Origin: Bacteroidales bacterium
GTDB lineage: Bacteria; Bacteroidota; Bacteroidia; Bacteroidales; UBA3663
DNA length: 64,000 nucleotides
Assembly: GCA_045629225.1 (NCBI GenBank)
Contig: JAZQQU010000016.1
Coordinates: 1,447 to 65,446, forward strand
Direction of reading: 5' to 3'
Part shown: positions 27,685 through 29,361 of the stretch, in pieces
Numbering within the stretch: position 1 is the stretch's first letter
Layout: every line of letters starts with the position of its first letter
The notes under the pieces: model-generated
The model's input: the letters and a program-made list of their open reading frames with translations, nothing else
What the model was told of the DNA's origin: nothing
Database searches by the model: none
Program-made: the position numbers and the translations under genes

Positions 27685-29361
27685 TTACTCCCCAGCATTG
27701 GCAATAGTTTTCACAAAGTCGAGGAAAAGTGGATGCGGATGGAGCACGGTACTGGTGTACTCAGGATGGAACTGTGTGCCGATGTACCAGGGGTGATCTG
27801 AAACCTCCACAATCTCGACCAAACCACAGTCGGGGTTCTTACCCACACATTGCATGCCTGCAGCCTCGTACTGGGCGAGGTATTGGTCGTTGAACTCGTA
27901 GCGATGGCGGTGACGTTCGCTGATTTGCTCCTTATTATATATAATATGTGTGTGGCTGCCTTCACGCAACTGGCAGGCATAGGCTCCGAGTCGCATGGTG
28001 CCACCCAGATTCTTGAGGTTCTTCTGACTCTCCATGATGTCAATGACATTGTGGGGAGTTTCTGCATCCATCTCGCGGCTGTTGGCATCGGTGAGGCCCA
28101 GGACGTTGCGTGCAAACTCTATGACCATCATCTGCATGCCGAGGCAGATGCCGAAGGTTGGAATCTGATGAGTGCGGGTGTATTGGGCTGCAATGATCTT
28201 GCCTTCGATGCCACGTGTGCCAAAGCCAGGGCAGATGATGATGCCGGAGAGGGCTTGAGGAATTTGAGAGGTTTGAAAAGTAAGCTTTTCAGCCACATTG
28301 TCTGTTGTGATCTCTTCGCTGTTGATGAAGTGGAGTTTCACCTTGACGCCATTATAGACACCGGCCAACAAGAGGCTCTCGCGAATGCTCTTATAGGCAT
28401 CTTGCAGGTCATATTTGCCAACCAGACCGATGTGTATCTCGCGTGTGGCCGAAGCCTGCAGGTCGAGGAATCGGTGCCAGGGCAGCATGGCTGGTGTTTC
28501 GCCTACAGGGATGCCGAATTTGCGCAGGATGGCAGCATCGAGTCCCTGTCGTTGCATGTTGACCGGCACCTGATAGATGCTGGGCATGTCCTCGCTCTGA
28601 ACGACGCACTCTAGATCGACGTTGCAGAACGAGGCTACCTTCAGGCGCATGGAGTCGGTTAGATGGCGTTCGGTGCGAAGTACCAGCACGTCGGGTTGGA
28701 TGCCCATGCCCTGCATCTCCTTGACCGAGTGCTGAGTGGGCTTGGTCTTGAGCTCGTCAGCTGCCTTGAGATAAGGCACATAAGTGAGGTGTACGCACAC
28801 GGCATCACGTCCCAGTTCCCAACGCAGCTGACGTATGGCCTCCATAAAGGGGGCACTCTCGATGTCGCCAATGGTTCCGCCCACCTCGGTGATGATGAAG
28901 TCAAAGTCCTCGGGTGTGGTTTGTGAGGTTGTGAGGTTCTGAGGTTGAGAGGTTGTGAGGTGAGGGGTGGGGAGCTCGCGACGAAGCATGCGACGCTTGA
29001 TCTCGTCGGTGATGTGGGGTACTACCTGAATGGTTCGGCCCAAGTAGTCGCCACGGCGTTCGCGGTCGATGACTGTCTTGTAGATGCGGCCTGTGGTGAC
29101 CGAGTTGTTGCGTGTGGTGCGGATGCCAGTGAAGCGCTCGTAGTGACCGAGGTCGAGGTCGGTCTCCATGCCATCGTCAGTGACGTAACACTCGCCGTGC
29201 TCATAGGGGTTGAGTGTTCCTGGATCAATGTTGATGTAGGGGTCGAACTTCTGGATGGTGATCTTGTAACCGCGAGCTTGCACCAGTTTGCCAATGCTCG
29301 CTGAGATGATGCCTTTGCCTAATGACGACACTACGCCACCGGTGACGAAAATGTATTTCAT
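27685..29361 (-). CDS. pyrG: CTP synthase
   Basis: [43 protein letters not shown] and HRHRYE. It contains two repeat-derived insertions (see findings). Confidence 0.97.

Follow-up and report, generated by a model that had tools for sequence, protein, structure and literature searches.

The pyrG gene and its two inserts

We analyzed a 64-kb window (the whole stretch of DNA considered here, positions 1,447-65,446 of contig JAZQQU010000016.1 in assembly GCA_045629225.1 of a Bacteroidales bacterium), in which pyrG, the gene for CTP synthase, carries two lineage-specific inserts, the first of them built around a tandem array of an octamer. The closest relatives of this pyrG were found in metagenome-assembled genomes (MAGs) of Prevotella or Prevotellaceae, and the lineage is treated here as gut Prevotellaceae. 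The features of the gene, in window coordinates, are as follows:

27685-29361, minus strand: pyrG, CTP synthase, 558 aa, a functional gene with both inserts
28912-28977, minus strand: insert 1, a lineage-specific loop, PyrG residues 129-150
28921-28961, minus strand: core tandem array of insert 1, ACCTCACA on the sense strand and TTGTGAGG on the plus strand
28246-28281, minus strand: insert 2, residues 361-372, a weak three-unit nonamer run

The open reading frame (ORF) matched the Pfam domains CTP_synth_N and GATase and aligned with solved CTP synthases in PDB (E = 1e-172), and the invariant catalytic columns and motifs of PyrG were retained. The ratio of nonsynonymous to synonymous substitution (dN/dS) was 0.07-0.08 when compared with the related loci L082 and L081 (84-86% nucleotide identity). 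All the features that mark a PyrG protein, namely the amidoligase and class-I glutaminase domains, the catalytic motifs and purifying selection, were found together, and as judged from its sequence the window pyrG is a functional gene under purifying selection.

The initial annotation of this DNA had reported an in-frame octamer repeat in pyrG at 28918-28966, and this was borne out: the plus strand reads GGTTTGTGA GGTTGTGA GGTTCTGA GGTTGAGA GGTTGTGA GGTGAGGG and is read in frame within the 558-aa ORF, and Tandem Repeats Finder (TRF) assigned to 28921-28961 a period of 8 with 5.1 copies, 87% matches and a score of 68. In the core array, 29 of 33 positions matched at lag 8, compared with a coding background of 8.1 on average (standard deviation 2.5). 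None of the 56,339 other same-length segments inside ORFs of the window, which formed this background, reached a score of 29, and the core array is the most periodic coding stretch in the window. No sense frame of the repeat (ACCTCACA)n contains a stop, whereas its complement has TGA every 8 codons. With a unit of 8, which is not divisible by three, translation passes through the three frames one after another and yields TSQPHNLT. Thus, the stop-codon rule is sufficient to explain the use of the G-poor strand for coding, and an RNA function need not be invoked; the RNA of the core array was unstructured (-8.3 kcal/mol, z = -0.9).

Insert 1 lies between helix 119-126 and strand 155-160 and replaces roughly residues 128-132 of the E. 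coli enzyme. In a HMMER alignment to PDB chains, query residues 128-151 were unmatched, opposite three chain residues. The extra length was about 21 residues compared with PDB chains and 19 compared with 62 other Bacteroidota PyrG, and only 6 compared with the nearest relatives, in which the loop is already enlarged. The translated loop is polar and rich in Thr, Ser, Gln and Pro, and an AlphaFold2 model of the protein (44-sequence alignment, mean predicted local distance difference test (pLDDT) score 85) represented it as coil with pLDDT below 50 at residues 133-148. Insert 1 is therefore predicted to form a disordered surface loop. In a strain with about 96% identity (X2 and X3 contigs), insert 1 aligned gap-free, and its one substitution, 28948 A>T, increases the regularity of the array; no polymorphism in unit number was seen between the window and this strain.

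A second insertion had also been claimed, in the glutaminase domain, and here only part of the claim stood: insert 2 does exist as a lineage-specific insertion, of 8-9 residues, but it is not an octamer array. Its units are about 9 nt long (AAACCTCTC AAATTCCTC AAGCCCTC) and its periodicity is weak: at lag 9, 13 of 18 positions matched, and lag 8 gave no signal. It was absent from PDB chains and from all 80 related loci, and the strain of about 96% identity (X1/X2) does not have it either, reading AEKLNDVAGIIIC, or NDVA, in its place (15 nt at the site, versus 39 nt in the window). In the alignment with E. coli, insert 2 falls between V338 and E339, within the loop 337-341, which adjoins helix 330-335, one of the two filament contacts of the E. 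coli enzyme. When both inserts were mapped onto the structure, as had been suggested, insert 1 was thus placed in a disordered surface loop and insert 2 at a filament-contact loop, where it was modelled as a small beta-hairpin (361-364 and 367-370, pLDDT about 89) before strand 373-376.

Variation of the PyrG loops among relatives

Loop lengths were compared between 62 distant Bacteroidota PyrG and 128 close homologues (at least 77% identity), the latter mostly from rumen or gut MAGs of Prevotella or Prevotellaceae:

Loop 1: span 17-19 in the distant PyrG, 15-50 in the close homologues
Glutaminase loop: span 52-53 in the distant PyrG, 52-66 in the close homologues
Third loop (before ERHRHRYEF): span 23-24 in the distant PyrG, 23-44 in the close homologues

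Among 130 close PyrG sequences there were 65 distinct loop-1 strings. Since loops are short and of constant length in the other Bacteroidota PyrG, this alignment, which the initial annotation had proposed as a check, did not return loops of the same length throughout, and the inserts are lineage-specific in that they are longer than in both PDB chains and the 62 other Bacteroidota PyrG. The accompanying view that inserts in such an essential enzyme are unusual holds with respect to other Bacteroidota but not within the clade: on the alignments, enlarged and hypervariable PyrG loops are the rule there and are not peculiar to this genome.

In the nearest relatives (87-89% protein identity), loop 1 has 30 residues and contains PxPGLxxxKGEEASDAE in L082 and L083. 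The octamer array of the window takes the place of most of this loop, with the ancestral CCC ACC CCT (PTP) retained directly 5' of the array. Compared with close relatives, the change at both window inserts looks like patch replacement and not like clean insertion.

The same was seen between L081 and L083, which are 98.9% identical in pyrG nucleotides outside the loops. L083 retains 48 nt coding PTPGLAIAKGEEASDA, which we counted as ancestral because it is shared with L082, whereas in L081 the nonamer CTTCAAACC forms a 45-nt array in its place, which codes for PLQTLQSTQTPQTPP. The density of single-nucleotide polymorphisms (SNPs) beside this patch was not raised. Moreover, the stretch CCTTCAAACCCTTCA of the L081 loop is identical to parts of two spacer arrays of the window, at 19616-19630 and 25559-25571. 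Two further differences between L081 and L083 were a 43-nt hairpin-bearing insertion just 3' of the pyrG stop codon (L081:1813-1866) and the copy number of a 42-nt minisatellite (L081:2785).

Other relatives carry other kinds of repeat in these loops. The pyrG loops of L005 (at L005:3370-3480) and L003 contain two opposed arrays each, which form hairpins; that of L005 folds at -50.2 kcal/mol (z = -8.4) and that of L003 at -24.2 kcal/mol (z = -3.3). In the complementary arm of both, in-frame TGA has been changed to CAA or GGA, and in L005 the change from TGA to CAA in the antisense arm is accompanied by a compensating TTG in the sense arm. The L005 loop word CCTCTCA recurs in a spacer as CTCTCAC. 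In L001, the heptamer AATGGTC is present 5.4 times in a glutaminase-domain loop and 4.6 times in a spacer 2.5 kb away. Loop 1 of the L207 pyrG (9977-11671) contains a GC-rich palindrome of about 40 bp, with the core CCCCTCCCTGTGAGGGAGGGG, twice. On the same contig, GltB (4806-9497) has no fewer than five in-frame copies of this palindrome and a GH95 gene (583-3135) has one; it occurs in both orientations and is read as STPLxxREGQG or PQPLPVxEGS. Altogether, palindromic versions occupy the same PyrG loop in L005, L003, L007 and L207. The L207 GltB has 1563 aa, compared with 1497-1511 in relatives.

To what extent pyrG inserts share words with their own genome was scored over 14 loci with k=11 and k=12, because word sharing at k=9 was too noisy. 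The 12-mers of pyrG inserts occurred at 0.55 per kb in the own locus outside pyrG, compared with 0.065 per kb in the loci of other genomes; the share of the window in this test was small, with one 13-nt match at 45784-45796. Thus, pyrG loops hold whichever short repeat is common in their own genome, be it octamers, nonamers, heptamer hairpins or 40-bp palindromes. At the DNA level, about 20 inserts from 15 loci were read, and every one of them keeps the frame and is without stops, which argues for translation; insert 1, with its kept frame and lack of stops, would accordingly be part of the protein.

Some additional peculiarities of these relatives were observed. L007 has a composite array, in which 9.9-13.9 units of AGTTTAAG are followed by 2.2 units of GTTATCGTTGAC, at 1581-1750 and again at 4706-4842. 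The two occurrences are 3.1 kb apart and flank pyrG on either side, and this duplication points to copying of whole array blocks. In the L007 pyrG itself, about 14 conserved residues near ..GMQMMV / SAEM.. were missing from the translated match, which could reflect a deletion, a frameshift or an assembly error. In the PyrG homologue P0003 (680 aa), about 135 residues of the amidoligase domain appear to be duplicated internally, and this could be real or an assembly artefact.

Repeat arrays elsewhere in the window and in metagenomes

Arrays of the same general kind are present in spacers, leaders and one further gene of the window:

45721-45814, no strand assigned: opposed arrays in the oadA-oadB spacer, TTGAGGTT x5, then ACCTCACA ACCTCGTA ACCTTATG ACCTTAGA
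17831-17923, plus strand: spacer array of ACCTCAAA x11.6, word family of insert 1, TRF score 123-137
25559-25645, plus strand: nonamer array of AACTCCTCG type, extending to the start codon of a LOG-family gene
19592-19630, plus strand: nonamer array at the 5' end or in the leader of an outer-membrane beta-barrel gene
53181-53212, minus strand: in-frame nonamer array ..EKCEKFEESEKSE.. in a superfamily 1 (SF1) helicase-nuclease gene, between its two helicase domains
53742-53774, minus strand: in-frame heptamer array of TCATTCC type, ..SSILIPNSSFPSN.., just before Walker A of the SF1 helicase-nuclease
29362-29421, minus strand: pyrG leader, A/C-rich and G-poor on the mRNA, loosely repetitive

The idea that the inserts consist of spacer-type words was supported by the first two of these arrays, as ACCTCACA recurs at 45784-45814 and the related ACCTCAAA is repeated 11.6 times at 17831-17923. 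The former array, flanked by genes with OAD_beta and PYC_OADA domains, also holds the only other exact ACCTCACAACCTC of the window, and its opposed arms fold at -26.4 kcal/mol (z = -3.2). The first units of the array at 25559-25645 (AACCCCTTCAAAC) match the pyrG loop array of L081. Both in-frame arrays of the SF1 helicase-nuclease gene (52522-55083, minus strand) are located in inter-domain linkers. In the region of the pyrG leader, TRF detected a period of 17 at 29389-29436. The ACCTCAAA array lies within 17739-17924 between two minus-strand genes, so that read-through RNA would carry the G-rich strand; this placing indicates that spacer arrays do not obey the sense-strand rule seen inside genes. 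A scan of part of the small ORFs of the window yielded no Avd-like/S23p four-helix-bundle family next to such arrays.

A metagenome scan with the word GGTTGTGAGGTTGTGAGGTT matched at least 120 contigs. The 66 arrays with at least 4 units were classified by position, among the matches listed, as follows:

Within an ORF, in the sense direction: 9
Within an ORF, in the antisense direction: 1
No more than 60 nt upstream of a start codon: 14
Facing a gene end: 21
Elsewhere in spacers: 21

Spacer arrays among these matches occurred in both orientations. On another contig, a MutS gene carries an in-frame octamer array directly before the Walker A strand, where the protein has about 18 residues more than E. 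coli MutS, and other mid-gene arrays were found in the linker of a DbpA-type DEAD-box helicase, in a GH35 glycosidase (two contigs) and in an AraC-family regulator. All of these in-gene arrays have 4-6 units (about 40-45 nt) and encode (NLTTSQPH)-type peptides. The link drawn in the initial annotation between spacer arrays and a process that also acts inside genes was strengthened by the finding that pyrG loops of relatives carry words of their own spacers, and the octamer arrays in frame in the MutS, DbpA, GH35 and AraC genes back it further.

Contig depths summed over the array reached 900-1,300 in runs X2, X3 and X5, versus 8-13 on its flanks, a difference of about 100-fold. Where the strain of about 96% identity was present at depth 11-13, contigs with matches to the 41-nt array added up to 1,100-1,300. 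The octamer word is therefore highly multi-copy in that community. A blastn comparison of the 120 metagenome loci with the window gave no matches.

Origin of the inserts

Taken together, these observations can be explained, with what we regard as an even chance, by passenger repeat DNA that was put into permissive pyrG loops by short-patch DNA events. The source would be a multi-copy family of 7-9-nt tandem arrays residing mostly in spacers and leaders of this lineage, from which about 40-50 nt of array would overwrite the previous loop sequence through template switching, ectopic conversion or templated break repair, with local slippage following the writing of the patch. Selection would retain those events that fall in permissive loops or linkers, have a length divisible by three and lie in the orientation that is stop-free in every frame. 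The insert would need no function of its own and would be passenger DNA that makes the loop hypervariable. We infer the copy mechanism, the actual translation and the neutrality of the inserts, the last of these being an assumption. Insert 2 is proposed to be of the same nature as insert 1.

Several observations weigh against this explanation. The copy number of the word in this genome comes from metagenome depth only, to which other species may contribute. A donor for the exact 41-nt array was not recovered: the window contains only one other exact match, of 13 nt, and among the 120 metagenome loci the longest run shared with the array was 27 nt. The L081 unit CTTCAAACC resembles its own left flank CGCAAACCC, which fits seeding by slippage as well as import. 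The RNA runs found contain only 4-5% of the words and so represent conserved parts of relatives, and translation is deduced from the reading frame. Finally, no terminal inverted repeats or target-site duplication, the marks of a MITE, were visible in the flanks of the window inserts. Classical transposition is thus unsupported, although a target-site duplication may be masked, as the events look like replacements. With regard to insert 2 and to L081 versus L083, import of a long divergent pyrG tract was considered and judged unlikely, since SNP density beside the patches was not raised; a very short conversion tract is possible in both cases.

The strongest rival, which we hold to be doubtful but by no means negligible, is growth in place by replication slippage from a local seed, with deletion of the older loop and nothing imported, the likeness of words being due to a shared mutational bias and the filter for stop-free, G-poor sequences. 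Such seeding would agree with the flank of the L081 array, whose third unit TCCACTCAA in addition resembles the ancestral CCCACTCCA, and with the ancestral PTP codons that the window retains before its array. The literature on long simple sequence repeats likewise invokes slippage of the polymerase, in steps of about 7 nt (Mrazek et al. 2007, as far as summarised in PMC4679880), and at least 120 metagenome matches for one word are not proof of dispersal, given 241 million records. However, slippage would have to combine an expansion with a matching deletion within 1-4% divergence both in L081/L083 and in the window/X1 pair, and further points against it are the identical 13-15-nt words shared by pyrG loops and distant spacers of the lineage, the approximately 8-fold enrichment of matches to spacers of the own genome, and the common module size of about 5 units in the in-gene arrays of five unrelated genes. 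It also cannot produce the 40-bp palindrome that was copied into pyrG, GltB and GH95 of L207. Selection of the inserts for a function, either to tune the assembly or regulation of CTP synthase or for a role in the mRNA (an unstructured C/A-rich tract here, a hairpin in relatives), appears quite improbable. The site of insert 2 between V338 and E339, where the eukaryotic helix 12 sits, its modelling as an ordered beta-hairpin, the unchanged length of insert 1 in the strain of about 96% identity and the compensated change that keeps the L005 hairpin paired all speak in its favour. But the content of the loop is not conserved, with 65 loop-1 sequences of lengths 15-50 that range from unstructured arrays to hairpins of -50 kcal/mol; the same repeats are found in unrelated proteins and spacers, insert 1 is predicted to be disordered, and a strain of about 96% identity does without insert 2.

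That the insert is not real or is missing from the mature protein, because of an assembly artefact, a phase-variable switch or removal or bypass at the RNA or translation level, is in our opinion very improbable. An 8-nt unit could indeed shift the frame whenever its copy number changes, and assembler contigs break at the array; but independent assemblies from three runs span it at the same length, the enzyme is of an essential type and not a surface antigen, and no copy-number polymorphism was seen between strains. The frame-keeping, stop-free state of about 20 inserts, with stops purged even from antisense arms, is expected only if they are translated. Phase variation of the pyrG array was rejected on the ground that the X2 and X3 contigs showed no change in unit number between strains, and an untranslated intervening element (intron, bypass element or intein-like) on the ground that the frame is kept, stops are lacking and TGA in antisense arms is replaced.

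The explanation by passenger repeat DNA could be extended, although we think this unlikely, to an active process in gut and rumen Prevotellaceae that writes patches of about 40-50 nt, containing about five copies of a 7-9-nt word or a fold-back pair, at a rate that separates strains of 99% identity. Such a process would act on both spacers and coding DNA and would be recorded by the loops of essential enzymes. It could work by repeated rounds of templated synthesis where forks stall or DNA breaks, or through a dedicated enzyme, and not by ordinary slippage or transposition.

Relationship to known repeat systems

Long simple sequence repeats of prokaryotes have 5-11-nt units (Mrazek, Guo & Shah 2007, as far as summarised in PMC4679880) and include the cyanobacterial short tandemly repeated repetitive (STRR) heptamers; the TAACTGA repeats of Beggiatoaceae, cyanobacteria and some Bacteroidetes have also been described (MacGregor 2015, PMC4679880). 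The array of insert 1, with its 8-nt unit and greater than chance length, shows the repeat structure that defines this class, and the related arrays at 17831-17923 and 45721-45814 bear on its dispersal within the 64-kb window. The likeness extends to head-to-tail 7-9-nt units, their lineage-specific words, and probably a large number of arrays per genome, located mostly in spacers and often up to start codons; as with TAACTGA repeats, the orientation inside ORFs is limited by stop codons (PMC4679880). On the other hand, the octamer of the window is stop-free in three frames and can therefore be placed midway through an essential gene, and arrays of this kind are found inside conserved enzymes and are replaced wholesale between strains of about 99% identity. 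A strict STRR assignment (heptamers of heterocystous cyanobacteria) was discarded, as the unit is 8 nt and the relatives are Prevotella/Prevotellaceae.

The in-frame position of the inserts in a housekeeping gene recalls the Rickettsia palindromic elements, which were reportedly described by Ogata et al. in 2000 and 2002. The window insert, too, is an in-frame insert in a conserved gene, absent from orthologues and, according to the model, surface-located and compatible with the fold. Rickettsia elements are present in frame in unrelated housekeeping genes and are translated at sites where the fold tolerates them (PMC10969869). However, the window insert is only 41-49 nt long, compared with about 150 bp (the defined element being about 100-150 bp), and is a one-armed tandem array without hairpin potential, the palindromic feature being found in the relatives L005 and L003 and not in the window. 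Nor is there a conserved element-wide peptide, as (NLTTSQPH)n simply follows from the octamer, and the host is a free-living gut bacterium of the Bacteroidota, whereas Rickettsia is an obligate intracellular alphaproteobacterium. Like simple-sequence contingency loci, the array is a coding tandem repeat whose unit length is not a multiple of three; it differs in showing no copy-number variation between strains, in its mid-gene position in an essential-type enzyme, and in being stop-free in all frames, even though a change by a single unit would destroy the downstream protein.

In eukaryotic CTP synthases, helix 12 occupies the loop that matches E. coli 337-341, and its grafting into that loop alters the filament assembly of E. 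coli CTP synthase (PMC11211670, PMC8641951). Insert 2 is located in the same loop of the glutaminase domain and could, given the filament contact, incidentally alter CTP synthase polymerisation. It differs from helix 12 in having no sequence relationship and none of the His/Trp contact residues, in its size of 8-9 residues, in being modelled as a beta-hairpin and not a helix, and in its absence from the strain of about 96% identity.

We found no description in the literature of such octamer or other tandem arrays for Prevotellaceae, and the window inserts are best read as a combination of known classes (long simple sequence repeats and Rickettsia palindromic elements) in a form undescribed for this family. 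If so, translated repeat DNA in essential enzymes of abundant gut bacteria would turn over faster than point mutations accumulate, thereby providing natural insertion-tolerance maps for PyrG, MutS, GltB and others. Marker-gene pipelines would also be affected, as contigs break at the arrays and protein clusters are split by loop content. The pairs of alleles before and after an event offer material on the origin and spread of short-period arrays, which have been known since 2007 and are unexplained, and the position of insert 2 makes it possible to ask whether passenger DNA can change the polymerisation of an enzyme.

Other repeats in the window

The neighbour of pyrG, a purF-like gene (29422-31254, minus strand), contains a 27-nt tandem duplication ..DQWANSSSASQWANSS.. 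at 29678-29737. This duplication is absent from the L082 and L083 orthologues, which have other short sequences there, making the site another hypervariable loop. No internal indels relative to L082 were observed in GSIII, P-II and Amt of the window. Tandem arrays of 41-42-nt hairpin units are located at 589-812 (5.5 copies) and 36808-37104 (6.1 copies); they form a repeat class distinct from that of the octamers, and L082 and L083 have minisatellites related to them.

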